Positions 32,664-59,097 of a stretch of DNA of 64,000 nucleotides are shown here, piece by piece (the first letter of the stretch is position 1; each line of letters starts with the position of its first letter). The notes under the pieces are model-generated. The model ran no database searches, had not been told where the DNA came from, and saw nothing but the letters and a program-made list of their open reading frames with translations. The DNA comes from a virus (Duplodnaviria > Caudoviricetes): the IMG/VR virus record IMGVR_UViG_3300042154_002208; one strand, given 5' to 3'. Both the position numbers and the translations under genes were made by a program.

Positions 32664-32670
32664 AACAAAA

Positions 32671-38600: not shown

Positions 38601-41236
38601 GCATAATAGACAACGTGGGTGTTCTATCTATATCAACTACCGGAAATTCCAACATAGAATTGGTTGCAAACGGCACAGGTAGGATCTTGCTAGATGGACA
38701 GTCATGGCCGCATACTGATGGAGAGACCGGGTATGTGTTACAGACAAATGGCACAGGCAATTTATTCTGGGCTGCTCCCACAGCATCTTCATCATTTAGT
38801 AACGCCAATGTAAGCTCATTCCTAACAACATACACCGGCAACATTAGTGCCGGCAATGTTATTGCTAATAGTTTCGTGTCGCCAACGGCAACATCTGCTA
38901 CATTGACATCTACAGGTAATTTGAATATTACTGCGGCTGGTACAATCAATTTAACCACGCCTAACGTATTGGTATCAGGCAATATTGTTGCAAATACATT
39001 TATATCCGCTGGTGCAGGCTCAGGAGAAATAGTATCCACAAGTAATTTATTATTAAGTGCAGCCGGTAATTTGAACTTAACTGCTCCAAATATTTTTGTT
39101 AATGGTAATCTGGTATTAACAGGTGGAATAACAGGGTTAACTCTAACGACCTCTAGTATTGCTGAAGGCTCAAACTTATATTACACCAATGCAAGAGTTC
39201 ACTCTAATGTTATTGGAATACTATCATCTTATGCATTAACCGCTAATTTAAATACTGCAAATGTAAATGAAAATGCCGCAAGTGGCAATTTGTACTATAC
39301 CAATGCCAGAGTAGTATCAAATGTTATCGCTTATCTTGCGGCAAATCCTGCAAGTGGTAGTTATGGTAACGCAAATGTTGGTGCATTCCTAACAACATAT
39401 ACTGGCAATATTAATGCAGGCAATGTTATTGCTAACACGGTCATTTCACCGTTTGCAACATCTGGAACATTAAATTCCACAGGTAATTTAAACATTGTTT
39501 CCGGTGACACAATTAATTTAACCGCAAATACTGTTCTTGCATCTGGCAATATTGTTGCCAACACATTCATTGCTACTGGAACCGGTTCCGCAGAACTTTC
39601 AACTTCAAGCAATTTATTATTAAGCGCGACCGGCAATTTGAACCTAGCTGGCGGTAATATCTTTGTCAATAGCCCTATAACATTCAGAGGAACGGTTACC
39701 GGTATTGCAAGTGCATCGGTTACACAGGCCAATTTAACTACTGCAAATGTAAATGAAATTGCTTCAAGCGGCAATTTATACTATACAAATGCAAGAGTTT
39801 ACTCTAATGTTATTAGCATTTTAGGTACTGCTGGATATGCACTAACCGCTAATTTAACAACGGCAAATGTAACAGAACTTGCTGCAACCGGTGGGTTGTA
39901 TTACACGAATGCAAGAGTATTATCAAATGTTACTGCGTACCTTGCAGCAAACCCACAAGGCGGTACATATGGTAATGCCAATGTTGCAGCATATCTATTA
40001 ACAAATCCTACAAGCGGAAGTTATAGTAATGCAAATGTGAGTGCATTCCTAACAACATACACTGGTAACATTAGTGCCGGTAATGTTATTGCAAATACAA
40101 TTCTTTCGCCTACTGCGACATCTGGAACATTAAATTCCACAGGTAATTTGAACATTATTGCTCAAAATAATACCATTAATTTAACAGCTTCAAATGTTCT
40201 AGCTTCCGGCAATGTTATTGCAAATACATTTATTGCAACTGGATCAGGTTCAGCAGAATTATCGACATCTAGTAACTTATTGTTGAGTGCCACAGGTAAT
40301 TTGAACTTAGCTGGTGGCAACATTTATGTCAATAGCCCAATAACATTCAGAGGAACTGTTACTGGTATATCAGCCGGCGGGTCAGTTACACAGGCTAATT
40401 TAACAACGGCCAATGTTGCAGAACTTGCTTCAAGTGGTAACTTATATTATACAAACGCAAGAGTTTACTCTAATGTTATTGGTTTATTAAGTACATATTT
40501 GTCCGCTGCTAGTTTAGCAACTTATACTGGCAACATTGGCGCCGGCAACGTAATCGCAAACGCATTCTATGCCAATGGTACAGGTGTAGCTGGCGGAACA
40601 ATTTTCTCCGCAGGTAATGTTAATATTACATCTGGTGGAAATATTATTCTGGCAACAGGTGCCAATTCATCTATTGTGGCATTGAGTTCTGGCACTACTG
40701 CAGGAATTATTAATGGATTTGGTAATTTAACAATATCAACATCCGGTAATATTTTCTTATCTCCAGAATCAGGCGGCAAAATTTATGCTTCGACTCCTGT
40801 AAGATTTGCAAATTATTCTAATGTAATTAGCGGTGTTTCAGGGCCGTTAACAGGTGATACTGCATATAATATATTATCTAATACTCTTTCATATTACAAT
40901 AGTACAGGATGGAATAAAGTAGGTTATCTAAATGTTCCGCAATCTGGCGCAGATAAAACTAGTGCATATACATTGGTAGCATCTGATGTTGGTAAGTTTA
41001 TTAGTATTGGCACAAGCGGAAGCATTGTTATTCCAGACGCAGTATTTGCTGCAGGGGATGCGATATCAATCTTTAATAACACAGGTACTGCAGCTACATT
41101 AACTTGTTCTATCACTACTGCGTATATAAGCGGCACAGATACAGACAAAGCAACTGTAACATTGGCAACCAGAGGAGTTGCAAGTATATTGTTTATTAGC
41201 GGAACAGTTTGTGTTATAACTGGTAGCGTATCATGA
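35606..41236 (+). CDS. long fibre-like structural protein (1876 aa)
   Basis: NLYYTNARV, YLAANP, TGNLNITAAG repeats; duplicated LDGQxWPHTDG blocks; C-terminal YTLVASDVGK domain. Confidence 0.8.
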   Translation: MARKIDVSLISGNGGSNGQLLGANTGNVSFQSIFTGNVIESGNTSSGNVYFSNARAIGALVAGDNISIAANGLISANLSAVSVSSVTGNLNVSGNVIANGFVSTSASAGLISSSGNITMTAAGAVNINSTNVIASGNVIANTFISTGPGSGLLSSTGNVSISATGVVTLTGSSIVVNGPLTANSYSGIFTANVTESASNLYFTNARVFANVVSLLAAKANVVDLTTANVAELNNLYYTNARVASNVIALMPSLQGNNIIIAANGQISANLTGVSVNVNNITGNLNVTGNVIANGFISASASAGLITSTGNITMTAAGAVNINSTNVIASGNLIANTFISVGTGSATLSSTGNVGITGAGNITLNSGNVIASGNVIATKFFGDGSSLTGVGASSFSGNTNGITEGTNNLFYTNARVNAQVESNLALKANVVDLTTANISELNNLYYTNARVVSNVIAYLAANPAISTYGNANVGAFLTTYTGNITAGNVIANTIISPTAIAATITSTGNLNITALGAINLTSPNVIASGNIVANNIITGSGSGGSFTGANLISAGNISATTWLNLYTANVIESDNSIFYTNARVLSNITAYLAANPVSGSFSNANVASFLSTYTGNLAAGNLILTGGIIDNVGVLTIATTSNSNIELSAAGNGRILLDGQAWPHTDGINGYVLQTNGTGNLFWGAPASSFANANVGAFLATYTGNISAGNVIANTILSPTAIAATITSTGNLNITAAGAINLTTTNVLVSGNIVANTFIATGSGSAELTSTSNILLSAAGNLNLTSSNVFVNGNLVLQGALSGLTLTTSSIAEGSNLYYTNARVVSNVIAYLAANPATVSFGNANVSSFLTTYTGNLSAGNVIANSFVSPTATSATLTSTGNLNITAAGTINLTTPNVLVSGNVVANNFISTGAGSGEVASTSNLLLSAAGNLNLTSSNVFVNGNLVLRGGITGLTLTTSSIAEGSNLYYTNARVLSNIEAALPTYTGNIAAGNLILTGGIIDNVGVLSISTTGNSNIELVANGTGRILLDGQSWPHTDGETGYVLQTNGTGNLFWAAPTASSSFSNANVSSFLTTYTGNISAGNVIANSFVSPTATSATLTSTGNLNITAAGTINLTTPNVLVSGNIVANTFISAGAGSGEIVSTSNLLLSAAGNLNLTAPNIFVNGNLVLTGGITGLTLTTSSIAEGSNLYYTNARVHSNVIGILSSYALTANLNTANVNENAASGNLYYTNARVVSNVIAYLAANPASGSYGNANVGAFLTTYTGNINAGNVIANTVISPFATSGTLNSTGNLNIVSGDTINLTANTVLASGNIVANTFIATGTGSAELSTSSNLLLSATGNLNLAGGNIFVNSPITFRGTVTGIASASVTQANLTTANVNEIASSGNLYYTNARVYSNVISILGTAGYALTANLTTANVTELAATGGLYYTNARVLSNVTAYLAANPQGGTYGNANVAAYLLTNPTSGSYSNANVSAFLTTYTGNISAGNVIANTILSPTATSGTLNSTGNLNIIAQNNTINLTASNVLASGNVIANTFIATGSGSAELSTSSNLLLSATGNLNLAGGNIYVNSPITFRGTVTGISAGGSVTQANLTTANVAELASSGNLYYTNARVYSNVIGLLSTYLSAASLATYTGNIGAGNVIANAFYANGTGVAGGTIFSAGNVNITSGGNIILATGANSSIVALSSGTTAGIINGFGNLTISTSGNIFLSPESGGKIYASTPVRFANYSNVISGVSGPLTGDTAYNILSNTLSYYNSTGWNKVGYLNVPQSGADKTSAYTLVASDVGKFISIGTSGSIVIPDAVFAAGDAISIFNNTGTAATLTCSITTAYISGTDTDKATVTLATRGVASILFISGTVCVITGSVS

Positions 41237-42354
41237 GTGGTATAATGAACATGGTAGTGGGCTCTTCATTTGGCCCACCAATTCCAGTATATGCTTTGTA
41301 TGGAACTGGTCGAAACACTGATGGTCAGCTTGGTTTCGGCAATACTTCATCTCCGTATGTAAATTTTACGCAAAGTGGTTCGAGTACTGATTGGTCGGAA
41401 ATCGAGGCCACCTTTTATAGTGCAAATGCAATTAAAACCGATGGTACCATGTGGGCATGGGGATATAATGGTTATTATCAATTAGGCTTAGGCGATAGTA
41501 CAAACAGATCTAGCCCTGTTCAAATTGGATCTAGTACAAATTGGGCAAAAATTAAAGGTGGGGGAGAATTTAGACTTGCCCTCACAACCAACGGTTCTCT
41601 GTGGTCTTGGGGAAAAAATTCATATGGACAGGGCGGCAGGGGAATTACCTATATTGAGGCCGTCCCAGGTCAAGTTGGAGCGTTAACTAATTGGTCAAAA
41701 ATAGCAACCGGCGCATTCACTTCAACATCAATTAAAACAGATGGCACATTGTGGGCATGGGGAAGAAATGCATACGGTGAAATAGGTAATGGTAATACTT
41801 CAAATTATTCTAGCCCAATACAAATAGGTACATTAAATAATTGGTCCAATGTTACTGCCGGATTTTCATTTGTTGCATCGATTAAAACTGATGGTACACT
41901 TTGGGTATGGGGCAGAAATTACAAAGGGGGATTGGGGTTAGGTGATACTACAAATAGATCTAGTCCAGTACAGGTTGGCGCAGGAAACAATTGGTATTCA
42001 ATTGGTGCAGCCAGAGACTCAACCTATGGAATTAAAACCGATGGTACATTATGGGCGTGGGGTCAAAATTATGCGGGCGCACTGGGGCTCGGGGATACTA
42101 CAAATAGATCTAGTCCAGTACAGGTTGGCGCATTAACTAATTGGTCAAAAATTGATGGCAGTACTGGGGGATATCATGTTGCAGCTATTAAAACTGATGG
42201 CACCCTGTGGACATGGGGATACAATCTTTATGGACAATTAGGCCTAGGGTCGTCGGGCAATTATGCTAAAAGATCCAGTCCTGTGCAAGTTGGCTCTTTG
42301 ACCAATTGGTTAGCTGTTAGTGCAGGATATAATCATACCTTGGCATTAGGATAA
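41233..42354 (+). CDS. RCC1/BLIP-II-like propeller, copy 3
   Basis: 7 blades; ATGA overlap with the fibre stop; different N-terminus MSGIMNMVVG. Confidence 0.9.
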   Translation: MSGIMNMVVGSSFGPPIPVYALYGTGRNTDGQLGFGNTSSPYVNFTQSGSSTDWSEIEATFYSANAIKTDGTMWAWGYNGYYQLGLGDSTNRSSPVQIGSSTNWAKIKGGGEFRLALTTNGSLWSWGKNSYGQGGRGITYIEAVPGQVGALTNWSKIATGAFTSTSIKTDGTLWAWGRNAYGEIGNGNTSNYSSPIQIGTLNNWSNVTAGFSFVASIKTDGTLWVWGRNYKGGLGLGDTTNRSSPVQVGAGNNWYSIGAARDSTYGIKTDGTLWAWGQNYAGALGLGDTTNRSSPVQVGALTNWSKIDGSTGGYHVAAIKTDGTLWTWGYNLYGQLGLGSSGNYAKRSSPVQVGSLTNWLAVSAGYNHTLALG

Positions 42355-42425: not shown

Positions 42426-42917
42426 ATGGCATTAATTAAAACGATGACGGTTGATGAATTTTATAATAACGAAAGTGCAACCAATTTATACAATGTAGTT
42501 AGAGGTTTACCATTTCAACCAACTGAGTTTGGTAAAGAAATATTAAATTTCAATCACATTCCTGCAGACGCAGATAACCTATTCTCAGCTGTACTCGGTA
42601 AAGATGTTACAGTAGATAGAGAAAAATCAGGTGTTTTTAGATTTCCTGAACTACTTATACACTTTGAAGGATTTGATTCTTTAAAGGAATGGTTATTTGT
42701 AGTTGCAATAGATCAATCTACATTTAACATCTTTGAACACAAATCCGGCGCATTAACTGCATTAGACGGATACCAACACAATTATAGAAATTTATTCGAA
42801 TGGGATCTGATGGTTAACTATCAGTTAAAACCCGGGCAAGCTGTATTTTTCAGACCTTGGTTATTTCATTCATTTGATAGTGGCATTGTGCAAATTTTTA
42901 GATTAATAGAAAAGTAA
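42426..42917 (+). CDS. 2OG-Fe(II) oxygenase-like protein (DUF6445-type)
   Basis: VDEFY, IHFE, GQAVFFRPWLFHS; paralogous to 46832. Confidence 0.6.
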   Translation: MALIKTMTVDEFYNNESATNLYNVVRGLPFQPTEFGKEILNFNHIPADADNLFSAVLGKDVTVDREKSGVFRFPELLIHFEGFDSLKEWLFVVAIDQSTFNIFEHKSGALTALDGYQHNYRNLFEWDLMVNYQLKPGQAVFFRPWLFHSFDSGIVQIFRLIEK

Positions 42918-42929
42918 ATTGGAAATATT

Positions 42930-43475
42930 ATGAAATTAAATATTGGAGCAGGTGATAAACATTATGATGGATTTTTAAATTGTGATTACGACGATAATTG
43001 TAATCCCGATTATAAATTTGATCTTGAAAACGACACATGGCCGTTTGAAGATAACTCCGTAGAAGAAGTAATTGCACATCATGTGTTAGAACACATGGGC
43101 GAGGGGTATTTTCACGCAATCAAAGAACTATACCGTGTTTGTAAGCATGATGCCATAATTGATATTGTAGTACCACATCATAGACATGAATATTTTGCAA
43201 ATGATCCAACACATCGTAGACCAATTACTGCCGAAGGATTGGGACTCTTTAGTAAAAAATACAATGATCTATGCAAACAACGAGGAGAATCTGCTTCTAG
43301 ATTGGCGCATCATTTCAATGTAGACTTTGATCTTTACACGGTAGAAAATATTCCCGATCAAAGATATTATAAAATATTCAATGGCAGACCCGAAGAAGAA
43401 GTTGAAAGATACGTACAAGAACATAATAACATTATCATGGAAGTCCACATTAAATTGAAGGTAATTAAAGAATGA
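42930..43475 (+). CDS. class I SAM-dependent methyltransferase
   Basis: KLNIGAG, DLE...WPFEDNSVEEV.A.HVLEH, ELYRVCK, DPTH. Confidence 0.85.
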   Translation: MKLNIGAGDKHYDGFLNCDYDDNCNPDYKFDLENDTWPFEDNSVEEVIAHHVLEHMGEGYFHAIKELYRVCKHDAIIDIVVPHHRHEYFANDPTHRRPITAEGLGLFSKKYNDLCKQRGESASRLAHHFNVDFDLYTVENIPDQRYYKIFNGRPEEEVERYVQEHNNIIMEVHIKLKVIKE

Positions 43476-44248
43476 ATAAATTGAATCTATTAGTAGTATT
43501 GCAGACACATTCCGTAAAAAGCAGAGATACTACAAAACAAAGATACTGCGGTGCAAGCAAAGCTGAAATAATGCGCAGATGTGTTACAAGTCTTGTTGAC
43601 TCAATTAACTATGCATCCGATCTATTACCACACGTTGATATTTCTTTGCAGGTATTTGACGATCATTCGGATGATGAATCATTCAATAAACTAACAAGTA
43701 TTGCATCTAAATGCAATGTACCTTATAACATTACGCAATTGGAAACAAGAGGCATTATGCCTTCTATTCTTAGATGCTATGAACACGGCAAACAATTTGG
43801 CAAAGACCTAGTATATTTTGTCCAAGATGATTACCTATATGAAATAAACGCCATTAGAGATATGGTCAACACCTGGGTAGATGCCAGCACCAGATTAAAT
43901 AAACCTGTTAGTATTTTCCCATTCAATGATCCCTATCATTACATTCCAGTAAATACACAAATTCCCTCATACGTAGTACAATCTTCAGGTAGACATTGGA
44001 GAACAAACATTTTGACTTCAAGTTGTTTTATGACGCACATTAGCATTATAAAAGACGAATGGGATTTGTTTTATAAAATGGGAACAAGTAAAGTATCCCC
44101 AACAATGGAAGATGATTCAATCAATCAGTTGTTTAAAACACGCGGATATTTTTTGCTTATACCGATTCCAAGTCTTGCACTACATATGCAATTCGATACC
44201 GAAAAGGATCCATTTATAAATTGGAGAGAATGGTGGGATAAGTATTGA
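43472..44248 (+). CDS. GT-A fold glycosyltransferase (GT2-like)
   Basis: VFDDHSDD, YFVQDDYL DxD-like motif, late H (LALHMQ). Confidence 0.7.
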   Translation: MNKLNLLVVLQTHSVKSRDTTKQRYCGASKAEIMRRCVTSLVDSINYASDLLPHVDISLQVFDDHSDDESFNKLTSIASKCNVPYNITQLETRGIMPSILRCYEHGKQFGKDLVYFVQDDYLYEINAIRDMVNTWVDASTRLNKPVSIFPFNDPYHYIPVNTQIPSYVVQSSGRHWRTNILTSSCFMTHISIIKDEWDLFYKMGTSKVSPTMEDDSINQLFKTRGYFLLIPIPSLALHMQFDTEKDPFINWREWWDKY

Positions 44249-44273
44249 CAAAATATCTTAAATCCGATAAAAT
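44245..44273 (+). promoter_or_regulatory. sigma70-type promoter
   Basis: TTGACA (44245-50), 17 nt, TAAAAT (44268-73). Confidence 0.7.
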
Positions 44274-44305
44274 ATTAATATATACCACAATAATTAGGTG
44301 ATTTT

Positions 44306-46063
44306 ATGAATAAACAACTACATTTTCTTGCAGGCATTCCCCGTTCTGGTTCTACAGTTCTCGCGGCCATTTTAAATCAAAATCCAATGACCCATGTTAG
44401 TACAACATCCGGGTTGGTTCATGCCTTAGATGGCTTGGCAAATACTTGGCATAGTGCTGGGTTATTAAATGAAAACGATGCGGATCGTTCTAAGCTGGCG
44501 GCAACAATGCGAGGGACTATTGATGCGTTCTACTCTGATGTAGACAAGCCCGTTGTTATAGATAAATCTCGCGGATGGCCTATTCCACAAATTATGGCAG
44601 CCATGTCTGCGGTTCTCGAAAGAAGACCTAAAGTTATTGCAACGGTTCGTTCCGTGCCTGATTGTGCTGCATCTTTTGTTCGTGTGGCAAAACCCACAGA
44701 CTTAGATCAACTTATCTATTCAGGTCAGTTAATGGATCACCTCAAAGCTGCTTATATTTCATTGCAAGAGGGTTATAAATTTGCCCCAGAAAATTTCCTG
44801 TTTGTTGAGTATGAAGATTTAGTTAAAGATCCCAAGAAAGAATTAAAACGTATTCATGCGTTCTTGGGCCTACCAGATTTTGATTATGACTTTGGTAACA
44901 TCGATGGTTCTACAGTATCAGAAGATGATGAGAACATTCACGGTTATGCAGGTATGCATGATATTAAGCCCGTGTTACAGCGTCAGCATAATCAAGACCC
45001 AAGAGAATTATTAAAGCATCATTATCCCTCATTCTGTCAGGGTGAGTTCTGGTTAAAGACTCCTAGAACAGTACAAGAAAAACACGATCTTGATTTTCAG
45101 CTTGAAGCAAGTACCCGTGGAGATTTTGAAGAAGGTTGGAGACTATCTCAAAAGATAGAATTAGCAGAACCATTTAACCACAGAGCAGCTTACAACAGAG
45201 GTTGGTATTACTTGAGTCAAGGCCACATCCAAAAGGGATATAGCCTAATGGATCGTGGTCGCATTGTAGGTGTGTTTGGAAACAGTAGACCAGATACCCC
45301 TATGCCTATGTGGGATGGAAAAACAAAAGGTATCGTAATGTTATACCTTGAAGGCGGACTGGGAGATCAAATACACCAAGTTCGTTATGCAAAAGTTATT
45401 GCAGATCGAGGATGTAAAGTCATGGTATGTTGTACCGGTATGCTGGCATCTTTGTTTATAGATGTTGAAGGTGTATCTGCAGTAGTACAGCACGAATCAA
45501 TTTACGGTGTGTATCATGATTTCTGGGTAGCAGGTATGTCTGCAGCAGTTCCATTGGGATTAGAACTTGAGGACTTATCGGGTGCACCTTATCTCAGAAA
45601 ACCATTCTCAATCAAAGGCAAAAAGATGCGTATCGGTTTGAGATGGCAAGGCAACCCACAATTCGAGCATGAGCATCATAAGAAGTTTCCTTCTGAGTTA
45701 ATGTTTGAAGCATTACGTGGTATTAATGCAGAGTTTATTAGCTTGCAAAGAGATGAGGGCGAAGATGAATGTCCATTCTGGGTTAGAAAAGTTCCATTAA
45801 ATACATGGGAAGATACTCGCAAAGCAGTTGCAGAATGTGATCTGGTGATTAGTTCATGCACATCTGTCAGCCACCTTGCTGGTGCTATGGGTGTAGATAC
45901 ATGGGTCGTTACTCCAATTATGCCATACTTCCTATATGCTCTTCCTGGAGACAAGACACCATACTATGATTGTTTCACCATGATGCGTCAGGAAAAATAT
46001 GGAGATTGGGAAGCACCGTTTGTGAAAATTAGAGAAAAACTTTTGGGAATGAATATACAATGA
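44306..46063 (+). CDS. sulfotransferase + TPR + GT9-like (GT-B) glycosyltransferase fusion
   Basis: GIPRSGSTVL (PAPS 5'-PSB), IDKSRGW, VEYEDLV; TPR-like AAYNRGWYYL; EGGLGDQI...DLVISSCTSVSHLAGAMG. Confidence 0.85.
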   Translation: MNKQLHFLAGIPRSGSTVLAAILNQNPMTHVSTTSGLVHALDGLANTWHSAGLLNENDADRSKLAATMRGTIDAFYSDVDKPVVIDKSRGWPIPQIMAAMSAVLERRPKVIATVRSVPDCAASFVRVAKPTDLDQLIYSGQLMDHLKAAYISLQEGYKFAPENFLFVEYEDLVKDPKKELKRIHAFLGLPDFDYDFGNIDGSTVSEDDENIHGYAGMHDIKPVLQRQHNQDPRELLKHHYPSFCQGEFWLKTPRTVQEKHDLDFQLEASTRGDFEEGWRLSQKIELAEPFNHRAAYNRGWYYLSQGHIQKGYSLMDRGRIVGVFGNSRPDTPMPMWDGKTKGIVMLYLEGGLGDQIHQVRYAKVIADRGCKVMVCCTGMLASLFIDVEGVSAVVQHESIYGVYHDFWVAGMSAAVPLGLELEDLSGAPYLRKPFSIKGKKMRIGLRWQGNPQFEHEHHKKFPSELMFEALRGINAEFISLQRDEGEDECPFWVRKVPLNTWEDTRKAVAECDLVISSCTSVSHLAGAMGVDTWVVTPIMPYFLYALPGDKTPYYDCFTMMRQEKYGDWEAPFVKIREKLLGMNIQ

Positions 46064-46842
46064 TATACTTTTTAAGCGGCCTGCCAAGATCAGGCTCAAC
46101 ATTGCTTGGATCAATTTTAAATCAAAATACAGAGGTATATGTTTCTCCCACAAGTCCCTTGTTAGATTTGTTATGCCTGCAAAATGAGGCATTGAACAGA
46201 GTTACTCAGCAATATACCTTTGATGTTGAAAATCAATCCGCATCCATATACACTGCGTTACCCAAAGCATATTATGAGAGCATAAAGAAACCACACATCA
46301 TTGACAAGCACCGAGCATGGGCACGCAATGTTATGCCTGCAAAGCTACACATTTCTGAAAACCCCCGGGTCATTTGTACCAATAGACCGGTTGCAGAAGT
46401 TGTCACAAGTTTTATCAAGTTACTGAATAAAGATCCAAACAATTTTATTGATGCAGCATTAAAACAAAAACGCAAGCCGATAAATACAAACACACGAGCA
46501 ATGGAACTATGGGAATCTTATATCAGAGATCCATGGGAAAGTTTACAGATTGGCTTGAAGAATTACAAAGACAATCTATATTTTGTACAGTATGATGATC
46601 TGGTACAAACTCCTCAAAGCACAATAAATAACATATATGATTTCTTGGAAATAAATAGATATGACCACAAGTTCGATAGTATCACAAATACTTGCGGTGA
46701 AGCCAAAGATACTGCATGGGGATTGAAAGATCTGCATACAATCAGAGGTAAATTAGAAAAGACCAGTGATTCTGCACAAGAAGTACTTGGCGAGAGTTTA
46801 TGTAAATATTTTTCACAATTTGATATTAAAAATGGAATTTGA
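46060..46842 (+). CDS. sulfotransferase family protein
   Basis: SGLPRSGSTLL, IDKHRAW, VQYDDLV; paralog of the N-terminal domain of 44306. Confidence 0.85.
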   Translation: MIYFLSGLPRSGSTLLGSILNQNTEVYVSPTSPLLDLLCLQNEALNRVTQQYTFDVENQSASIYTALPKAYYESIKKPHIIDKHRAWARNVMPAKLHISENPRVICTNRPVAEVVTSFIKLLNKDPNNFIDAALKQKRKPINTNTRAMELWESYIRDPWESLQIGLKNYKDNLYFVQYDDLVQTPQSTINNIYDFLEINRYDHKFDSITNTCGEAKDTAWGLKDLHTIRGKLEKTSDSAQEVLGESLCKYFSQFDIKNGI

Positions 46843-47458
46843 TAAAAAAGTAATAGTTATAGATGATTTTTATCCCGATCCTTATATGATGCGGGATATG
46901 GCATTGAATGCGGAATACGAACCTGAAGGCCTGACACCTAACTATCCAGGGCTAAACACCACGAGATCGTATTGGGATACAACCATTACAAAAATGTTCT
47001 GTAAGGCCACGGGAGAAGATGTAAAACCTGCAAAACCCTCGGCCAATGGATTTTTTAGACATACTCGAGCAAAAGACATTGCAAAACAAATTGTGCATTT
47101 TGATCCAACACCGGGACAAACATGGGCAGGAGTAGTTTATTTAAGTCTACCCGAGCATTATGAAGGTAGAGATGCCGGAACAAAAATTGTTTCTCATAAA
47201 CGAACCGGCATGACCATTGCCCCCAAAGATTACACCGAAAGTGACGCAATTGGAGTAAAAACATTCGAAGATATGCGAAATTTCTTTGAAACTGAGGGTA
47301 TAAATACTAATTTATGGAAAACCGAATTGAATGTAGACATTAAGTTTAATCGGGCCGTGCTGTTCAGGCCCTGGTTATGGCACCATATGGGCCAACATTT
47401 TGGAACAGACGTTAACAACAGTAGATTGACACACCTTATATTCCTACAACCGGCTTAA
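46832..47458 (+). CDS. 2OG-Fe(II) oxygenase-like protein (DUF6445-type)
   Basis: IVIDDFY.DP, VHFD...WAGVVYL, FNRAVLFRPWLWHH, RLTH; start at ATG 46832. Confidence 0.75.
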   Translation: MEFDKKVIVIDDFYPDPYMMRDMALNAEYEPEGLTPNYPGLNTTRSYWDTTITKMFCKATGEDVKPAKPSANGFFRHTRAKDIAKQIVHFDPTPGQTWAGVVYLSLPEHYEGRDAGTKIVSHKRTGMTIAPKDYTESDAIGVKTFEDMRNFFETEGINTNLWKTELNVDIKFNRAVLFRPWLWHHMGQHFGTDVNNSRLTHLIFLQPA

Positions 47459-47483
47459 ACCGAAAATTTGGAATATCTTATAT

Positions 47484-47491
47484 TATAAATA
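47484..47491 (+). promoter_or_regulatory. T4-type late promoter heading the 9-gene propeller array
   Basis: TATAAATA, then AGGAG SD and ATG 47526. Confidence 0.8.
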
Positions 47492-47525: not shown

Positions 47526-47912
47526 ATGGCATTATTTGTACAAGTATTAGACGGCGAAGTTAAACAAGTTTGGGACTCTGCACCACCCGAAGGCCAAGAA
47601 GGCTGGAGAAATGCAGTAGAAGTTCGTGCTGAACTAGTTGCACATCGTCAACAGTTTGCGGCTCACCGCTATGATCTAAATGTAGATCCAGTTCAAATCA
47701 TCTGGGACGCAGTAGATATCACAGTTGAAGATCGTAAAAACAGCATGATTTCTAATGCTAATTTTGCGGTTGCTCGCATGAATATGCAAAATCAGATGAC
47801 ACCCGGAACTCATACCGCAGAAGCAATTGCCGCAGCACAAGCTACAGCAGACGCTAAAGTTGCAGCAGTTAATGCCGCAACAACACACGACGAATTAGAC
47901 GCGTTAGTTTAA
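47526..47912 (+). CDS. hypothetical protein, possible fibre assembly chaperone
   Basis: 128 aa; helical Ala-rich C-terminus ending ATTHDELDAL, as in tail chaperones. Confidence 0.55.
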   Translation: MALFVQVLDGEVKQVWDSAPPEGQEGWRNAVEVRAELVAHRQQFAAHRYDLNVDPVQIIWDAVDITVEDRKNSMISNANFAVARMNMQNQMTPGTHTAEAIAAAQATADAKVAAVNAATTHDELDALV

Positions 47913-47932: not shown

Positions 47933-49063
47933 ATGGCCCTGACCATTTCCGGTTTTACTATGACCGGTAATCTTACCGCGGTACATATTCCACCCCCTCC
48001 TCCATCCTATTACCTTTGGTCATGGGGTCGCAACAATTATGGTTTATTGGGGGTAGGAGATACTATAGATAGATCTAGTCCAGTACAGGTTGGTGCTCTT
48101 GGTAATTGGTCAACTGTTTCTGGCGGAGTTTATCATAATCTATCCATTAAAACAGATGGTACCTTATGGTCATGGGGTAGAAATTATTTAGGCTTTTTAG
48201 GTCTTGGCGAGACCACCGCTAGATCTAGTCCAGTGCAAGTAGGTGCATTAACTAATTGGTCAAAAATTGCTACAGGTGGAGGCCTACACAGTTTAGCTAT
48301 AACAACCGATGGGTATTTATGGACTTGGGGTTACAATTATTATGGACAATTAGGATTAGGTAATACTACAGGATATTCAAGTCCAAAACAGATTGGCGCA
48401 TTAACTAATTGGTCAAGTATTTCTGCAGGCGGTAATCACAGTTTAGCTATCAAAACAGATGGTACATTATGGGTATGGGGGTATAACCAGTCAGGTCGAT
48501 TGGGCCTTGGCGATACTAATAATAGATCTAGCCCAGTACAAATTGGGGCTCTAACCACTTGGTCAAGTATTTCTGCAAGCAACGGCGGCTGTGCCGCTAT
48601 CAAAACAGATGGTACTTTGTGGGTTTGGGGCGGTAATTATTTTGGGCAGTTAGGATTAGGCAATACCACATATTATTCAAGTCCCAAACAAGTTGGCGCA
48701 TTAACTACTTGGTCAAGTATTTCTGCAAGCGGCGGCGGCTGTGCCGCTATCAAAACAGATGGTACTTTGTGGGTTTGGGGTAGAAATTTTGGGGCAGGTT
48801 CTTTAGGGTTAGGTGATACTATATCTAGATCTAGTCCAGTACAAATGGGGGCATTAACCAATTGGGCAAGTATTTCTGCAGGAGAACTTTTTTGTGTGTC
48901 CATTAAAACAGATGGTACACTATGGTCATGGGGACACAATGCGTATGGCCGGGTTGGAGATGGTACAACTGTTCTTAAATCTAGCCCAGTACAAATTGGA
49001 TCATCAACTACCTGGTCAAGTATTTCTGCAGGTAGCGCTACTCCATTAGCTATTAAATCTTAA
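47933..49063 (+). CDS. RCC1/BLIP-II-like propeller, copy 4
   Basis: MALTISG...PPPPP + 7 blades. Confidence 0.9.
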   Translation: MALTISGFTMTGNLTAVHIPPPPPSYYLWSWGRNNYGLLGVGDTIDRSSPVQVGALGNWSTVSGGVYHNLSIKTDGTLWSWGRNYLGFLGLGETTARSSPVQVGALTNWSKIATGGGLHSLAITTDGYLWTWGYNYYGQLGLGNTTGYSSPKQIGALTNWSSISAGGNHSLAIKTDGTLWVWGYNQSGRLGLGDTNNRSSPVQIGALTTWSSISASNGGCAAIKTDGTLWVWGGNYFGQLGLGNTTYYSSPKQVGALTTWSSISASGGGCAAIKTDGTLWVWGRNFGAGSLGLGDTISRSSPVQMGALTNWASISAGELFCVSIKTDGTLWSWGHNAYGRVGDGTTVLKSSPVQIGSSTTWSSISAGSATPLAIKS

Positions 49064-49082
49064 TAAAAATTAAAAGAACAAA

Positions 49083-50213
49083 ATGGCACTAACAATTTCA
49101 GGCGTAAGAATAAACGGAGCATTGTCTGCGGTGCATATTCCACCTCCTCCGCCACCTGCGTATTACCTTTGGGCTTGGGGTGCTAATGATTACGGTGAGT
49201 TAGGCCAAGGCGATTATAATATTAATAGATCTAGTCCAGTACAGATTGGTTCATTGACCAATTGGTTAAGTATTTCAGCCGGTGGTTATCACAGCGCGGC
49301 CACCTTCCCAAACGGGACTATATGGACATGGGGCAGTAATTATGTCGGCCAATTAGGGTTAGGAAATACTACAAATAGATCTAGTCCGGTACAAGTTGGT
49401 GCCTTAACCACATGGTCAAGTATTTCTACTGGCCAATACCACAACCTGGCCGTTAAAACAGATGGTACCATGTGGACATGGGGTGGAAATAGTTATGGCA
49501 AATTGGGGTTAGGCGATACCGCAAATAGATCTAGTCCAGTACAAATTGGCGCTTTAACTACTTGGTCATCTGTGAGTGCAGGAGGAAATATCAGTGCGGC
49601 AATTAAAACAGATGGTACATTGTGGGCGTGGGGTAGAAATTATCACGGGTCATTGGGCCAAGGTAATACTACAGATAGATCTAGTCCAGTACAAGTTGGT
49701 TCTCTAACTAATTGGTTGTCTGTTGCTGCTGCATATGTTTGTTGTCACGCAATTAAAACAGATGGTACCTTATGGTCATGGGGTAGAAATTATGCTGGCG
49801 TCTTGGGTTTAGGAGGTACTACAAATATTTCCAGTCCAGCACAAGTTGGTGCATTAACAAATTGGTCAACTGTATCTAACAGAGAACACTATTGTGCAGC
49901 AATTAAAACAGATGGTACATTATGGTCATGGGGCAGGGGTTCTCAAGGCAAATTAGGGTTAGGCGACATTACCAATAGATCCAGCCCGACTCAGGTTGGT
50001 GCATTAACTACTTGGTTAAGTGTTTCTGCAGGATATTCTCACAGCGCTGCTATTAAAACTGATGGTACTCTGTGGTCGTGGGGTAGCGGCGGCCAAGGTA
50101 GATTGGGCCTAGGTGATACTACATCTAGATCTAGTCCAACTCAAGTTGGAGGATTAACTACTTGGTTATATATTGCTGCAGGAAGTACTTTCACCGCCGC
50201 TATTAGTAACTAA
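49083..50213 (+). CDS. RCC1/BLIP-II-like propeller, copy 5
   Basis: MALTISG...PPPPPP + 7 blades. Confidence 0.9.
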   Translation: MALTISGVRINGALSAVHIPPPPPPAYYLWAWGANDYGELGQGDYNINRSSPVQIGSLTNWLSISAGGYHSAATFPNGTIWTWGSNYVGQLGLGNTTNRSSPVQVGALTTWSSISTGQYHNLAVKTDGTMWTWGGNSYGKLGLGDTANRSSPVQIGALTTWSSVSAGGNISAAIKTDGTLWAWGRNYHGSLGQGNTTDRSSPVQVGSLTNWLSVAAAYVCCHAIKTDGTLWSWGRNYAGVLGLGGTTNISSPAQVGALTNWSTVSNREHYCAAIKTDGTLWSWGRGSQGKLGLGDITNRSSPTQVGALTTWLSVSAGYSHSAAIKTDGTLWSWGSGGQGRLGLGDTTSRSSPTQVGGLTTWLYIAAGSTFTAAISN

Positions 50214-50229
50214 TTAAAAGAAGAACAAA

Positions 50230-51351
50230 ATGGATCTAATCGGAATAACTATATTTGGCGGAGTCAACATTCAGCCTCCGCCTCCGCCACCTCCTGTGCC
50301 CACATACTATCTATGGTCTTGGGGCAGAAATTATAAAGGTGTAATGGGTCTAGGTGATACTACCAATAGATCCAGTCCCAATCAAGTAGGCTCAATGAGT
50401 GATTGGTTATCTTTGGCTGCAGGAAGATACCATATGACAGCAATTAAAATCGATAACACCTTATGGTCTTTTGGTCAAAATTCAAGCGGTCAATTGGGGC
50501 TAGGCGATACCACCGACAGATCAAGTCCAACTCAAATCGGAGCATTGGCAACCTGGGCGTCATTAAGTTGCGGGGATCAGCACGCCATAGCAATTAAAAC
50601 AGATGGTACCTTGTGGGCATGGGGATACAATGGTATCGGCGGCTTGGGGCTAGGAAATTCTACAAGTTATTCAAGCCCAATGCAAGTTGGCGCGCTAACA
50701 ACTTGGTCAAGTATTGGTACCGGCGGATACAATTCGTTTGCTGTTAAAACCGATGGTACATTATGGACATGGGGATATAATGCACAAGGACAACTGGGTC
50801 TAGGCAATACCGCAGCTAGATCTAGTCCAGTACAGATTGGTGCATTAACTACTTGGTCAAAAGTTGATGGTGGAGATAAGCACACCATGGCAATTAAAAC
50901 AGATGGTACCTTGTGGGCATGGGGTGCTAGCAATCAGGGCCAAACGGGAACGGGAAGTTCTTCGTCTAGCCCAGTACAAGTTGGCGCATTGACAACCTGG
51001 GCAACATTAGGTATAACATATTTGTCATCCTCGGCAATTAAAACCGATGGTACATTATGGATGTGGGGTTCCAACGAGTCGGGACATTTAGGCCTAGGCA
51101 ATACTACCAATCAAGGTAGTCCGGTACAAGTGGGCGCGCTGACTACTTGGTCAAAAGTTAGTTTAGGACAATTCCATACTATGGCAGTTAGAACCGACGG
51201 CACATTATGGACATGGGGATTCAATGTTCAGGGTCAACTTGGTATTGGTAACACCACATATTTTTCCAGTCCAAAACAAGTTGGTGCATTAACTACCTGG
51301 TTGAATGTTACTGCAGGATATAGACATTCAACTGCAATTACATCGCAATAA
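50230..51351 (+). CDS. RCC1/BLIP-II-like propeller, copy 6
   Basis: MDLIGITIFGG...PPPPPPP + 7 blades. Confidence 0.9.
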   Translation: MDLIGITIFGGVNIQPPPPPPPVPTYYLWSWGRNYKGVMGLGDTTNRSSPNQVGSMSDWLSLAAGRYHMTAIKIDNTLWSFGQNSSGQLGLGDTTDRSSPTQIGALATWASLSCGDQHAIAIKTDGTLWAWGYNGIGGLGLGNSTSYSSPMQVGALTTWSSIGTGGYNSFAVKTDGTLWTWGYNAQGQLGLGNTAARSSPVQIGALTTWSKVDGGDKHTMAIKTDGTLWAWGASNQGQTGTGSSSSSPVQVGALTTWATLGITYLSSSAIKTDGTLWMWGSNESGHLGLGNTTNQGSPVQVGALTTWSKVSLGQFHTMAVRTDGTLWTWGFNVQGQLGIGNTTYFSSPKQVGALTTWLNVTAGYRHSTAITSQ

Positions 51352-51380
51352 CCCGTTATACTAATTAAAAGAACAAAAAA

Positions 51381-52514
51381 ATGCCATTAATTTTTTCAGG
51401 TATAACCACAAAAGGTAGTTTCGAGATGGTGTATACTCCACCACCGCCTCCCGAACCAACATCTTATCTATGGTCGTGGGGTAGTGGAAGCGACGGTCGA
51501 CTAGGTTTAGGTAATACTACAAGTTACTCAAGTCCAAAACAAATTGGTTCGTTAGGCTCTTGGTTGAATATTGCTGCCGGGTATAATCACGGCATGGCCC
51601 TCAAAACAGATGGTACACTTTGGTCATGGGGTTACAATGATACGGGTCAGTTAGGTTTGGGGGATCTTACAGATAGATCTAGTCCAGTACAGATTGGCGC
51701 AGGAACCACTTGGTCAACAATTGAAGGAAGTTTCTTCTACAACATAGCCATTAAAACAGATGGTACCATGTGGTCATGGGGTTATAATAATAGCGGTCGA
51801 TTGGGGTTAGGCAATACTACAAGTATATCTAGTCCAGTACAAATTGGTGCATTAACTACTTGGTCAAAGATTAATGCAGGTGGTCAGCATACCATGGCCA
51901 TTAAAACAGATGGTACCATGTGGGCATGGGGAGTTAATCAACACGGTGCACTGGGGCTAGGCGATACCACAAATAGATCTAGTCCAGTACAAATTGGTTC
52001 ATTAACTACTTGGTTAAATATTGCTGGAGGGTACAGGGCCAGTATGGCCGTCAAAACAGATGGTACGTTATGGTCATGGGGGATGAATGCTTTTGGTCAG
52101 TTAGGATTAAATAATTATACATATTATTCTAGCCCAAAACAGGTAGGGGGTCTAACCAATTGGTTAAGTGTTGCTGGGGGTAAATATGCTCACAGCGTGG
52201 CCCTGAAAAATAATGGCACCTTGTGGGGATGGGGTCGCAATTATATAGGAATGTTAGGTTTAGGTGGTACCACTCAATATATAAGCCCAGTTCAAGTTGG
52301 TGCTTTAACCAATTGGTCAAGTATTGATGCCGGTAGAAGTCACAGCGTGGCCATTAAAACAGATGGTACCATGTGGGCTTGGGGTGGAAATGGATCCGGT
52401 CGATTGGGGTTAGGTGATACCACAAATAGATCAAGCCCAACACAGATTGGTTCATCAACTAATTGGTCAAAGATTGATGCAGTTGGTACGTTCACCTTGG
52501 CTATTAGCTATTAA
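51381..52514 (+). CDS. RCC1/BLIP-II-like propeller, copy 7
   Basis: MPLIFSG...PPPPP + 7 blades. Confidence 0.9.
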   Translation: MPLIFSGITTKGSFEMVYTPPPPPEPTSYLWSWGSGSDGRLGLGNTTSYSSPKQIGSLGSWLNIAAGYNHGMALKTDGTLWSWGYNDTGQLGLGDLTDRSSPVQIGAGTTWSTIEGSFFYNIAIKTDGTMWSWGYNNSGRLGLGNTTSISSPVQIGALTTWSKINAGGQHTMAIKTDGTMWAWGVNQHGALGLGDTTNRSSPVQIGSLTTWLNIAGGYRASMAVKTDGTLWSWGMNAFGQLGLNNYTYYSSPKQVGGLTNWLSVAGGKYAHSVALKNNGTLWGWGRNYIGMLGLGGTTQYISPVQVGALTNWSSIDAGRSHSVAIKTDGTMWAWGGNGSGRLGLGDTTNRSSPTQIGSSTNWSKIDAVGTFTLAISY

Positions 52515-52530
52515 TAAAAAGAAAAACAAA

Positions 52531-53652
52531 ATGGCATTTACTTTTTCAGGCTTTGCAACCAACGGCAGTTTTAATCTGGTATGTCCTATACCTCCTCCAC
52601 CTCCCGCATATTATTTATGGGGATGGGGCAAAAATACCGATGGTACCGTAGGTGATAACACAACTACTGGTAGATCTAGTCCTGTGCAAGCCGGCACATT
52701 AACCACTTGGTTGAATGTTTCTGCAGGTGAATATCATGGTTTAGCACTTAACTCCGATGGCACCATGTGGTCTTGGGGAAGAAATAGTCAAGGTCAATTA
52801 GGGTTAGGTAATACTACACGTGTATCTAGTCCGGTGCAGGTTGGTGCTTTAACCACTTGGTCAACTATCGTAGGCGGGTCACAACACAGCTTAGCAGTTA
52901 AAACAGATGGCACATTGTGGTCATGGGGATATAATGCTTATGGTAAACTTGGACAGGGAGATACTATATCTAAATCTAGTCCAGTACAAATTGGTGGATT
53001 AACTAATTGGTTAAATGTTGCTGCTGGATATAGTTCCTCAGCTGTTAAAACAAATGGTACATTATGGACTTGGGGTTTTGGTATCTATGGTTTATTAGGG
53101 CTAGGTAATACTACACATAGATCTAGTCCAGTTCAAGTTGGTGCATTGACCAATTGGTCTAGCTCGACATTTGGATATCTACATTGTATGGCAATTAAAA
53201 CAGATGGCACGATCTGGGCATGGGGATATAATCCTAACGGACAACTTGGGTTAGGCAATACTACAAATATATCTAGTCCAGTTCAAGTTGGATCCGATAC
53301 AAATTGGGCAAGTATTGAAGCAGGTGAATATCAGACTTTAGCAATTAAAACCAATGGTACATTATGGTCATGGGGATGGAATAATTTGGGCAGACTGGGA
53401 CTCGGTAATACTACAGCATATTCAAGTCCAAAACAAATTGGTGCATTAACTACTTGGTCAAAAGTTTCTACGGGCTATCATGTCGCTGCAATTAAAACGG
53501 ATGGCACTCTTTGGGCTTGGGGAAGAAATACCGATGGTGAATTGGGTCTAGGTGATACTACAGATAGATCTAGTCCAGTTCAAATTGGCGCATCAACTGC
53601 TTGGTTAAATGTTTCGCTGGCTAATTATCATAGTATAGCAATCTCAAATTAA
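52531..53652 (+). CDS. RCC1/BLIP-II-like propeller, copy 8
   Basis: True start ATG 52531 (MAFTFSG), not 52414; PPPPP + 7 blades. Confidence 0.9.
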   Translation: MAFTFSGFATNGSFNLVCPIPPPPPAYYLWGWGKNTDGTVGDNTTTGRSSPVQAGTLTTWLNVSAGEYHGLALNSDGTMWSWGRNSQGQLGLGNTTRVSSPVQVGALTTWSTIVGGSQHSLAVKTDGTLWSWGYNAYGKLGQGDTISKSSPVQIGGLTNWLNVAAGYSSSAVKTNGTLWTWGFGIYGLLGLGNTTHRSSPVQVGALTNWSSSTFGYLHCMAIKTDGTIWAWGYNPNGQLGLGNTTNISSPVQVGSDTNWASIEAGEYQTLAIKTNGTLWSWGWNNLGRLGLGNTTAYSSPKQIGALTTWSKVSTGYHVAAIKTDGTLWAWGRNTDGELGLGDTTDRSSPVQIGASTAWLNVSLANYHSIAISN

Positions 53653-53666
53653 AAGAAGAACAAAAA

Positions 53667-54803: not shown

Positions 54804-54820
54804 TTAAAAAGAAAAACAAA

Positions 54821-55951: not shown

Positions 55952-55977
55952 AAAAAAAATAAAAAAGAAGAACAAAA

Positions 55978-57105: not shown

Positions 57106-57120
57106 AAAGAAAAACAAAAA

Positions 57121-58305: not shown

Positions 58306-59097
58306 ATGACACAGAGAATTTTAGTAATGGGTTTACCAGGCTCAGGCAAGACATATCTTTCCCAGTATATTTTAGAATACCTGCAAAGAGAAAAGAAAAC
58401 AGTTTCTTGGCTCAATGCTGATGATGTTCGTAAAAAATACAATGATTGGGATTTCAGTAAAGAGGGTCGCATTCGTCAAAGTTTACGTATGCGAGAACTT
58501 GCTGATGGCATGACAACTGATTATGTTATTTGCGATTTTGTTGCACCTTTACCCGAGATGCGAAACAATTTCAAAGCAGACTGGACTGTATGGGTTGATA
58601 CAATTGAAAAAGGCCGCTTTGAAGATACCAACAAGGCATTTGTGCCGCCAGATGTATATGACTTTAGAATAACAGAACAAAATGCAGAGAAGTGGGCAGA
58701 GTTTATTGTGGCTCACATTTATGATAACAGACGCAGACCAACATTTGACTGGCAAAAAGAAAGCGCGTTGCTATTAGGCAGATATCAACCGTGGCACCCT
58801 GGGCATAGAGCATTGTTCGAAAGAGCAATTGCCAAGACAGGACAAGTTATTATACAAGTACGCGATTGTCAAGGTTGGAATGGTTCTAATCCTTTCGAAT
58901 TTAGGAAAGTTAAAGAATTTATTGAGAGAGATCTCGATACTTTATTTCAAGGGCAATATCAAATTATGTTAGTTCCTAACATAACCGAAATTGTTTATGG
59001 AAGAGATGTTGGCTACAGAATAACGCAGGAAACATTTTCTGACGAGATACATTCTATTTCTGCTACGAAAATTCGTAAAGAAATGGGATTGCAATAA
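58306..59097 (+). CDS. cysC: adenylylsulfate-kinase-like domain fused to a HIGH-type nucleotidyltransferase domain
   Basis: GLPGSGKT P-loop, LNADDVR, DFSKEGRIRQ, DFVAP (APS kinase pattern); C-terminal LGRYQPWHPGH...ISATKIR. Confidence 0.75.
   Translation: MTQRILVMGLPGSGKTYLSQYILEYLQREKKTVSWLNADDVRKKYNDWDFSKEGRIRQSLRMRELADGMTTDYVICDFVAPLPEMRNNFKADWTVWVDTIEKGRFEDTNKAFVPPDVYDFRITEQNAEKWAEFIVAHIYDNRRRPTFDWQKESALLLGRYQPWHPGHRALFERAIAKTGQVIIQVRDCQGWNGSNPFEFRKVKEFIERDLDTLFQGQYQIMLVPNITEIVYGRDVGYRITQETFSDEIHSISATKIRKEMGLQ

Follow-up and report, generated by a model that had tools for sequence, protein, structure and literature searches.

A phage cassette built around a sulfotransferase-TPR-glycosyltransferase fusion and its linkage to RCC1 propeller genes: a candidate system for modification of phage adhesins

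Among the bacterial autotransporter heptosyltransferases (BAHT; TibC with TibA, Aah with AIDA-I), TibC heptosylates the adhesin encoded next to it, according to the title of PDB entry 4rap. The TPR (tetratricopeptide repeat) domain of FlmG from Caulobacter selects the protein substrates, paralogous flagellins that are glycosylated in the cytoplasm prior to export or assembly (PMC7591256). In bacteria, operons that combine genes for a hydroxylase, a methyltransferase, a sulfotransferase and a 3'-phosphoadenosine 5'-phosphosulfate (PAPS) synthase have been predicted to act on the tail-collar or collagen-like proteins encoded with them, first by hydroxylation and then by sulfation (Iyer et al., 2010; PMC2938197). 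Glycosyltransferases of mycobacteriophages decorate the phages' own virion proteins, namely the capsid and the tail tube (Freeman et al., 2023, PMC10527164, as cited in PMC12619734), and the role of phage sulfotransferases was stated to be unclear in a 2023 paper (PMC10580990). Here we analyze a cassette of six enzyme genes, denoted g1 to g6, that exactly fills positions 42426-47458 of a 64,000-nucleotide stretch (hereafter, the window) from the IMG/VR virus record IMGVR_UViG_3300042154_002208. The central enzyme, g4, is a fusion of a sulfotransferase, TPR and a compact glycosyltransferase (GT) domain of the GT9 type, and the surrounding genes encode RCC1 beta-propellers that are presumed to be fibre-tip adhesins.

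The g4 protein resembles BAHT in its GT9-type GT-B fold (TibC, Z 15.1-15.2 over 240 residues) and in that the gene for a soluble cytoplasmic enzyme lies beside an adhesin gene, with the propeller as the putative substrate and ADP-heptose as the presumed donor. It differs from BAHT in several respects: the conserved four-cysteine iron finger of these dodecameric enzymes is missing (no cysteine column is invariant or nearly invariant in A1, an alignment of 48 sequences of the g4 family), the catalytic domain is compact (~245 residues) and linked within one protein to TPR and sulfotransferase domains, a beta-propeller takes the place of the autotransporter as the candidate substrate, and the system is phage-borne, with donor genes of its own. 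With FlmG, g4 shares the location of TPR on the N-terminal side of a GT-B catalytic domain, a likeness of architecture; however, g4 has only two TPR repeats and an extra sulfotransferase domain, and its donor is probably heptose instead of pseudaminic acid. By analogy, TibC and Aah with their adhesins and FlmG with the flagellins appear to be the closest working models.

The heptosyltransferases WaaC and WaaF (CAZy family GT9) of lipopolysaccharide (LPS) synthesis are the best structural matches of g4 residues 342-585, and the GD motif at the N-terminus of this domain is probably another common feature. Unlike these enzymes, g4 does not match the Pfam family Glyco_transf_9, is fused to TPR and a sulfotransferase, and belongs to a context of fibre and propeller genes rather than LPS genes. 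The sulfotransferase part contains the PRSG(S/T)T 5'-phosphosulfate loop of TPST1 and TPST2, the nearest solved relatives by both profile and structure, but is cytoplasmic as opposed to Golgi-resident and has a threonine where these enzymes have the catalytic glutamate. As in the predicted bacterial operons, 2-oxoglutarate (2OG) oxygenases, a methyltransferase, a sulfotransferase and PAPS supply are found beside a fibre-like candidate substrate, whereas those operons include neither a GT9/heptose branch nor propellers. The mycobacteriophage system likewise consists of phage-encoded glycosyltransferases directed at the phage's own virion proteins, which are the putative targets here, but the GT families are different, and that system involves no sulfation and no dedicated donor-supply genes. 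Literature searches yielded no description of this module, nor of a phage heptosyltransferase acting on phage proteins. An earlier note on this DNA (hereafter, the original prediction) considered sulfated virion proteins to be uncharacterized; the general idea has a precedent in the operons predicted for bacteria in 2010 (PMC2938197). The string "RCC1" in a prasinovirus paper is a culture-collection code, not the protein.

Layout of the cassette and architecture of the fusion enzyme

The phage from which the window derives is large, T4-like and from lake water; its proteins are only ~33% identical to those of cyanomyoviruses and pelagimyoviruses, and its DNA is found again in many lake metagenomes. 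The closest IMG/VR record, with 94% DNA identity to the window, was used as the reference relative; blastn of the 5-kb cassette stretch against GenBank phages gave no match. Every gene in the window is on the + strand, and positions 17-64 kb are a long stretch of fibre, glycine-rich and RCC1-propeller genes. The co-directional genes of the cassette, in order, are:

42426..42917, + strand: g1, divergent DUF6445-like 2OG/Fe(II) oxygenase, 163 aa (BLASTP to g6, Atlas neighbours, alignment A3)
42930..43475, + strand: g2, small class I S-adenosylmethionine (SAM) methyltransferase, 181 aa (Methyltransf_11, 2.2e-5; phrog_6636, 3e-16)
43472..44248, + strand: g3, GT2-like GT-A glycosyltransferase, 258 aa (DDY motif of the DxD type; viral GT2 clusters, 0.98)
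44306..46063, + strand: g4, sulfotransferase-TPR-GT9 fusion, 585 aa (Pfam, PDB profile search, AlphaFold2 model, Foldseek, VIA)
46060..46842, + strand: g5, stand-alone PAPS-type sulfotransferase, 260 aa (Sulfotransfer_3, 1.1e-15, above the cut-off)
46832..47458, + strand: g6, DUF6445 (PF20043) 2OG/Fe(II) oxygenase, 208 aa (Pfam, 2.8e-11)

The candidate substrates and the genes for donor supply, together with g7, are located as follows:

41233..42354, + strand: RCC1 seven-blade propeller gene, candidate substrate (Pfam RCC1 and WD40_RLD)
47526..47912, + strand: g7, conserved 128-aa protein between the cassette and the nine-gene array, with a TATAAATA box at 47484
47933..58242, + strand: nine tandem RCC1 propeller paralogues, candidate substrates (open reading frames, Pfam, alignment A2, N-termini)
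58306..59097, + strand: fusion of an adenosine 5'-phosphosulfate (APS)-kinase-like P-loop domain with a HIGH-motif nucleotidyltransferase (APS_kinase, 4.3e-10)
3917..6445, + strand: ADP-heptose genes, namely HldE domain II adenylyltransferase, HldE domain I kinase, cupin, small HAD phosphatase and HldD epimerase

The cassette genes are tightly packed, with short or overlapping junctions, including ATGA overlaps at g2/g3 and g4/g5. In the comparison with the reference relative, dN/dS is 0.05-0.12 across all six genes (0.085 for g1, 0.049 for g4), which is indicative of strong purifying selection and hence of real, functional genes. By contrast, the flanking propellers have diverged from those of the same relative to the point that they are alignable only with gaps; thus, the enzymes are conserved while the neighbouring propellers diversify. 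The six genes were confirmed, on the + strand, at the bounds given in the original prediction, and its enzyme assignments hold, although it listed the six in a different order. The context it described, with RCC1 propellers at 41233 and 47933-58242, an APS-kinase-like fusion at 58306 and a weak 2OG oxygenase at 61117, was borne out as well; its placement of the cassette between propeller copy 3 and the nine-gene array is correct except for the omission of g7.

The g4 protein consists of the sulfotransferase (residues 1-258), two TPR repeats (259-324) and the compact GT9-type GT-B domain (342-585), and the AlphaFold2 model has a mean pLDDT of 93.2. The sulfotransferase matches Pfam Sulfotransfer_3/1 at residues 7-192 (Sulfotransfer_3, 2.3e-17, above the cut-off) and retains intact PAPS motifs, PRSGST at 12-17 (5'-phosphosulfate-binding loop, 5'-PSB) and R115-x7-S123 (3'-phosphate-binding motif, 3'-PB). 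In the PDB profile search, TPST1 and TPST2 are the nearest relatives (2e-10 to 6e-9), with CurM next. In the structural comparison (VIA), TPSTs again come first (Z 18.3-19.1 over ~240 residues); CurM and the olefin-synthase sulfotransferase score 16.4, the heparan-sulfate enzymes ~14 and the cytosolic SULTs 11-12. The TPR segment is recognized by profile (E=3e-18 to consensus TPR) and by structure (AspH TPR, Z 11.5, rmsd 1.6), and its helices in the model span residues 261-316.

For residues 342-585, the top structural matches all belong to GT9: in addition to TibC, these are WaaC (Z 16.0-16.5), WaaF (15.8) and 3tov (15.5), with 229-241 residues aligned, and the Foldseek E values are 8e-5 to 6e-4. 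Two residues of the GLGDQI motif, G353 and D354, are nearly invariant in A1 and are located where the first Rossmann half of the model begins; D354 presumably corresponds to the aspartate of the N-terminal GD motif in GT9 enzymes (WaaC Asp13), a match made by eye. Judged by its sequence, this domain is best described as a distant member of the GT9 fold, for which ADP-heptose is probably the donor: HldE/HldD-type genes are present in the window and, in relatives, belong to the same gene string as the fusion. The g4 family is abundant, with 1516 homologues in a 90%-identity collection and 182 IMG/VR contigs, as well as 27439 matches in a 50%-identity representative library, where the TPR-GT module is also found stand-alone or in 3-6 copies within giant proteins.

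Conservation of the gene neighbourhood and donor supply

From the 182 contigs, which were obtained in a single-protein search with the fusion, 80 loci were fetched and mapped by tblastn. The constant string in these loci is propeller(s), fusion, propeller(s), g7 and APS kinase. In 78 of the 80, the fusion has RCC1 genes as immediate neighbours, and the remaining two are cut by contig ends. The g7 gene was mapped in 68 loci, in every case behind the last propeller and ahead of the APS kinase, which follows it in 38; the heptose genes come directly afterwards in about 10. The propellers and g7 are the only constant non-enzymatic neighbours of the fusion, long fibres being inconstant. A g2-like methyltransferase was found in 12 of the 80 loci, and g1, g3 and g6 in merely 2-3. 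The conserved core thus consists of the propellers, the fusion, g7, the APS kinase and the heptose genes, and g4 is the conserved core enzyme of the cassette, whereas g2, g3, g5 and g1/g6 are lineage-specific accessories. The window stands out by its rich accessory set (two DUF6445 oxygenases, a methyltransferase, a GT-A and a second sulfotransferase) and by the expansion of the propeller array between g7 and the APS kinase.

Because the 80 close loci share descent, we also examined distant loci, with 26-40% identity, and the link to propellers holds in five of the seven. Two of these are from cultured cyanophages. S-SRM01 encodes three propellers, a separate TPR-GT and a separate sulfotransferase. 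In BUCT-ZZ01, a phage of Synechococcus elongatus PCC 7942 (L093, 5707-9572), a tail fibre and a propeller-like protein are accompanied by TPR-GT9 fused to a g2-like methyltransferase; the latter fusion is annotated as "hypothetical protein" and is adjacent to the gene of a "BNR repeat domain protein" that matches RCC1 propellers in tblastn, with 42% identity. The marine virus AG-345-E08 combines a TPR-GT, a propeller, a sulfotransferase and a DUF6445 gene, and L099 has a propeller, a fusion (38% identical) and a g7-like gene. In L097, the fusion has the reverse order, TPR-GT9-sulfotransferase, and its neighbours are propellers, methyltransferases, an APS-kinase-nucleotidyltransferase fusion, and g2-like and g3-like genes, of which the g3 homologue adjoins the g2-like methyltransferase; the stand-alone relative in this locus gives only a weak match to PF01075.

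A genome binned as Saccharibacteria carries the module as well, on a 108-kb contig, and so does an independent assembly of 120 kb (L006/L009, 4046-13975). The contig looks cellular, with an even GC content of 0.30-0.40, and the island lies between tatAC and dnaB/cysS, among housekeeping genes and without virion genes. It comprises three propellers, the fusion, a methyltransferase, a GT25 gene and an APS kinase, with no long fibre gene. The ~75% identity of its fusion to that of the window phage points to a recent exchange involving phages and ultra-small bacteria. Two propellers of this island begin with a 135-aa domain, which is also encoded on its own by a 133-aa gene.

With regard to donor supply, the best NCBIfam matches of the ADP-heptose genes are rfaE_dom_II (2.5e-34), rfaE_dom_I (8.4e-46) and heptose_epim (1.9e-65), all with scores below the curated cut-offs, as expected of divergent members. 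In the window, these genes are 38 kb upstream of the cassette region, whereas in relatives they directly follow the APS-kinase gene. The fusion at 58306-59097 matches the NCBIfam adenylyl-sulfate kinase (8.6e-10, below the cut-off) and PDB entry 2yvu (2.8e-6), with the P-loop and FxxP aligned but only over the first 90 residues; at the three APS-kinase motifs that were tested (P-loop, DGD and FISP), it has GLPGSGKT, NADD and FVAP. It is probably the source of PAPS. Given the heptose genes and this fusion, there is a plausible phage-encoded donor pathway for each half of g4: the pathway appears to be self-contained, as originally predicted, with ADP-heptose for the GT9 domain and PAPS for the sulfotransferases.

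The C-terminal domain of the APS-kinase fusion, with the HIGH motif GRYQPWHPGH and ISATKIR, is similar in sequence to nicotinamide mononucleotide adenylyltransferases. The same combination of domains is found in the distant L097 (9968-10747), together with the reverse-order GT9-sulfotransferase, and the fusion could be a minimal two-step PAPS synthase. The heptose set at 3917-6445 lacks a SIS-type GmhA isomerase; the 118-aa cupin of this operon, which shows weak similarity to mannose-6-phosphate isomerase and co-travels with the other genes in relatives, may fill the isomerase step.

Proposed mechanism and alternative targets

We propose that the cassette is a cytoplasmic system that modifies the phage's own RCC1 propellers late in infection, before assembly, and regard this proposal as evenly poised between right and wrong. 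Under this scheme, the short TPR of g4 would hold the propeller or its leader, the GT9 domain would transfer heptose from ADP-heptose made by the phage HldE/HldD-type enzymes, and the fused sulfotransferase together with g5 would add sulfate from PAPS provided through the APS-kinase fusion. In the window lineage, g3 might attach a second sugar, g2 a methyl group, and g1/g6 might hydroxylate; the expected order is heptose first, then sulfate, with lineage-specific additions. The folds, cofactor motifs, donor-supply genes, purifying selection and gene linkage were computed directly, and from these we infer the acceptor protein and residue, the glycan, the order of the steps and the biological effect, whether on charge, receptor binding or resistance to grazing.

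The choice of the propellers as the target follows from the synteny, the presence of TPR and the cytoplasmic nature of the enzymes, which come without export machinery: no membrane segment or signal peptide was detected in any cassette enzyme or propeller, and no flippase, polymerase or lipid-carrier transferase among the genes of the window. The independent fusions in several arrangements (sulfotransferase-TPR-GT9, TPR-GT9-sulfotransferase and TPR-GT9-methyltransferase) tie these activities to one product. A likeness to protein-modifying enzymes is apparent both in the sulfotransferase, where TPSTs score Z 18.3-19.1 against 16.4 for the next family, and in g6, whose nearest relatives are protein prolyl hydroxylases. 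A predicted complex of g4 residues 250-585 with the propeller at 47933-49063 returned a score of 0.00, which amounts to no answer and was used neither for nor against binding. The original interpretation thus stands for the enzymes, the self-contained supply and the linkage with adhesin arrays, which we checked and found in 78 of 80 close and five of seven distant loci, but not for the six genes as one conserved unit, in view of the limited occurrence of the methyltransferase (12 of 80 loci) and of the GT-A and DUF6445 genes (2-3).

Several observations weigh against modification of the propellers. The 80 close loci are not 80 independent observations, and two of the seven distant loci have no propeller, namely L098, with a relative of the fusion, and the podovirus L094, with a stand-alone TPR-GT9. 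Residues 251-585 of g4 match no Pfam family, Glyco_transf_9 (PF01075) included, up to E=10, and the fold likeness leaves the acceptor unfixed because the LPS enzyme WaaC scores slightly above TibC. The catalytic base of TPSTs is the glutamate after the 5'-PSB loop (Glu99 of TPST2); in the HMMER alignment, this position is Thr34 in g4, and the A1 consensus is non-acidic there. For this reason, a firm assignment of g4 as a tyrosine sulfotransferase was set aside, and the acceptor of the sulfate may be a sugar hydroxyl instead of tyrosine. Finally, both the modification and the status of the propellers as virion parts are inferred.

Among the alternatives, the one that survives best, albeit unlikely, is that the enzymes act on different virion proteins, for example, the 1876-aa fibre (35606-41236), the glycine-rich proteins or the capsid, and that the propellers merely happen to be neighbours. 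The cassette is indeed inside a run of fibre genes; in the propeller-less podovirus, the TPR-GT9 relative adjoins the major capsid gene, and L098 has a fibre-like neighbour in place of a propeller. The known virion glycosylation in phages affects the capsid and tail tube (Freeman et al., 2023, as cited in PMC12619734). However, in the conserved core, only the propellers and g7 constantly accompany the fusion whereas the long fibres do not, and the cellular island combines propellers with the enzymes in the absence of a long fibre gene.

We consider it improbable that the enzymes instead remodel the host envelope, for example, in superinfection exclusion, by placing heptose, sulfate or methyl groups on the LPS core or another surface glycan. 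The "LPS genes" of cyanophages have long been proposed to play such a role, the ADP-heptose pathway is classically that of LPS, the LPS-core enzymes WaaC and WaaF are the top GT9 structural matches (Z 15.8-16.5), and g3 weakly matches a GtrB-like O-antigen conversion family. Nevertheless, the flippase, polymerase, lipid-carrier transferase and membrane segments are missing, and the TPR fusion and the near-invariant adjacency to propellers would be left unexplained. Furthermore, the cluster is located among structural genes, with a late-type TATAAATA box just after the cassette, upstream of g7, and the module is found on a contig binned as Saccharibacteria, which are generally held to lack LPS.

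The uneven distribution of the accessory genes brings up another explanation, namely that the six genes are unconnected "morons" collected in a hypervariable island rather than one pathway, with cooperation confined to the fusion, the APS kinase and the heptose genes. The presence of g1, g3 and g6 in 2-3 and of the methyltransferase in 12 of the 80 loci fits this explanation, but it appears quite improbable considering the tight packing with overlapping stops and starts, the uniformly strong purifying selection on all six genes, and the recurrence of g2-like, g3-like and DUF6445 genes beside TPR-GT9 and propellers in L093, L095 and L097. Least plausible is the synthesis of a sulfated, methylated glycoside or another small secondary metabolite, by analogy with dioxygenase-rich cyanophage clusters for which metabolite roles have been proposed (Iyer et al., 2010; PMC2938197): although CurM and olefin-synthase sulfotransferases are structurally close to g4 (Z 16.4) and small-molecule 2OG oxygenases score 1-2 Z units below prolyl hydroxylases, there are no genes for a non-ribosomal peptide synthetase, polyketide synthase or terpene scaffold in the window, and the TPR fusion and the propeller linkage would again have no explanation.

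Returning to modification of the propellers, a broader but rather doubtful possibility is that this is a self-sufficient ADP-heptose/PAPS system that puts sulfated heptose on hypervariable RCC1 adhesins in phages and some ultra-small bacteria; the products would be the first sulfated glycoproteins of phage particles, and the DUF6445 enzymes of this lineage could act on the polyproline linkers, in an extensin-like manner. If so, receptor-binding proteins of common freshwater and marine phages would bear a charged glycan that is ignored by sequence-based prediction of host range, and the same kit may decorate attachment proteins of episymbiotic bacteria. Escherichia coli makes both ADP-heptose and PAPS, and BUCT-ZZ01, which is in culture and infects a model cyanobacterium, could be suitable for testing.

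Accessory enzymes, propellers and additional features of the window

The two oxygenases of the cassette are related to each other, but only g6 is a recognizable DUF6445 protein (44.2 bits against the Pfam cut-off of 24). In this family, H89-x-D91, H184 and R198 are conserved (alignment A3), and the AlphaFold2 model of g6 (pLDDT 92.2) is a double-stranded beta-helix whose nearest folds are prolyl hydroxylases: OGFOD1 (Z 13.1), a Pseudomonas P4H (12.3), PHD (12.2) and vCPH, the collagen prolyl hydroxylase of chlorovirus PBCV-1 (12.1), with small-molecule 2OG oxygenases merely 1-2 Z units below. The listed GTG start of g6 at 46766 would overlap g5 by 77 nt; the homologues are 208 aa long, hence the real start is the ATG at 46832. 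No Pfam family was matched by g1, which aligns with g6 in BLASTP (E=2e-6), with HFE over HFD and the distal histidine aligned, and has DUF6445 clusters among its Atlas neighbours (score 0.93); it retains H-x-E and the distal histidine but lacks the arginine that DUF6445 conserves after the latter (A3).

The g2 protein weakly matches the MftM oligosaccharide methyltransferase and is probably a sugar O-methyltransferase. The profile matches of g3 are weak (Glycos_transf_2, E=0.029; phrog_841, 1e-4), and tblastn with g3 found nothing. The sulfotransferase g5 is a paralogue of the N-terminal domain of g4 (~32% identity) and is 45.5% identical to the annotated sulfotransferase of cyanophage S-SRM01.

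There are 12 propellers in the window (31524-33786, 41233-42354 and 47933-58242), all with a ~20-residue leader rich in serine, threonine and glycine and a proline-rich linker before the first blade, and in most of them the linker includes a run of four to eight consecutive prolines. The gene at 41233 has a 4-nt ATGA overlap with the 1876-aa fibre gene, which is indicative of translational coupling. Polyproline linkers are nearly confined to the window lineage, being present in 15 of 199 propellers in related loci. A run of at least three prolines in the first 60 residues was detected in 10 of 22 propellers from DUF6445 loci compared to 5 of 177 elsewhere; however, all 10 belong to the window's own lineage, and the DUF6445-bearing lineages L015 and L095 have no polyproline, so that a link between DUF6445 and polyproline was rejected as too weak. 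The Tyr-Tyr pair after the polyproline, which was considered in connection with tyrosine sulfation, is probably part of the first propeller strand (cf. the TLWxWG blade motif). With its GTG start, the listed 412-aa open reading frame at 52414-53652 shares 100 nt with the propeller gene before it; the actual propeller start is the ATG at 52531, with the usual MAFTFSG leader.

The g7 protein, with its Ala/Thr-rich tail, is as constant a companion of the module as the APS kinase but has no family assignment; its Atlas Caudo_TAP score of 0.87 is below the trusted level, and, as a lead only, it may be a factor akin to fibre-assembly chaperones.

Outside the core and the cassette, two more features can be listed:

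61117..61671, + strand: third 2OG/Fe(II) oxygenase, weakly recognized (2OG-FeII_Oxy_3, 2.5e-4, below the cut-off; NCBIfam FlmC-family, 1.6e-4)
1784, 2646, 8577, 12443, 47299, 47484 and 59749, among nine, + strand: TATAAATA boxes

The third oxygenase shows no sequence similarity to g6 and is unrelated to DUF6445. The nine TATAAATA boxes are all on the + strand, their total count being at chance level, and many are 25-40 nt upstream of start codons, resembling T4-type late promoters. Neither g1 nor g4 has a box immediately in front of it, the nearest being those at 47299 and 47484. In one lake metatranscriptome, short near-identical contigs cover 42671-42970 (g1), 44577-44748 (g4) and 47368-47723 (g6/g7); these were set aside as evidence of expression because carry-over of DNA is possible. 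Genes for rubrerythrin-like and ferritin-like proteins (3164-3691 and 14420-14854) are located near cytidylyltransferase-like and DUF6267 genes, and iron handling by their products could matter for the Fe(II) oxygenases.

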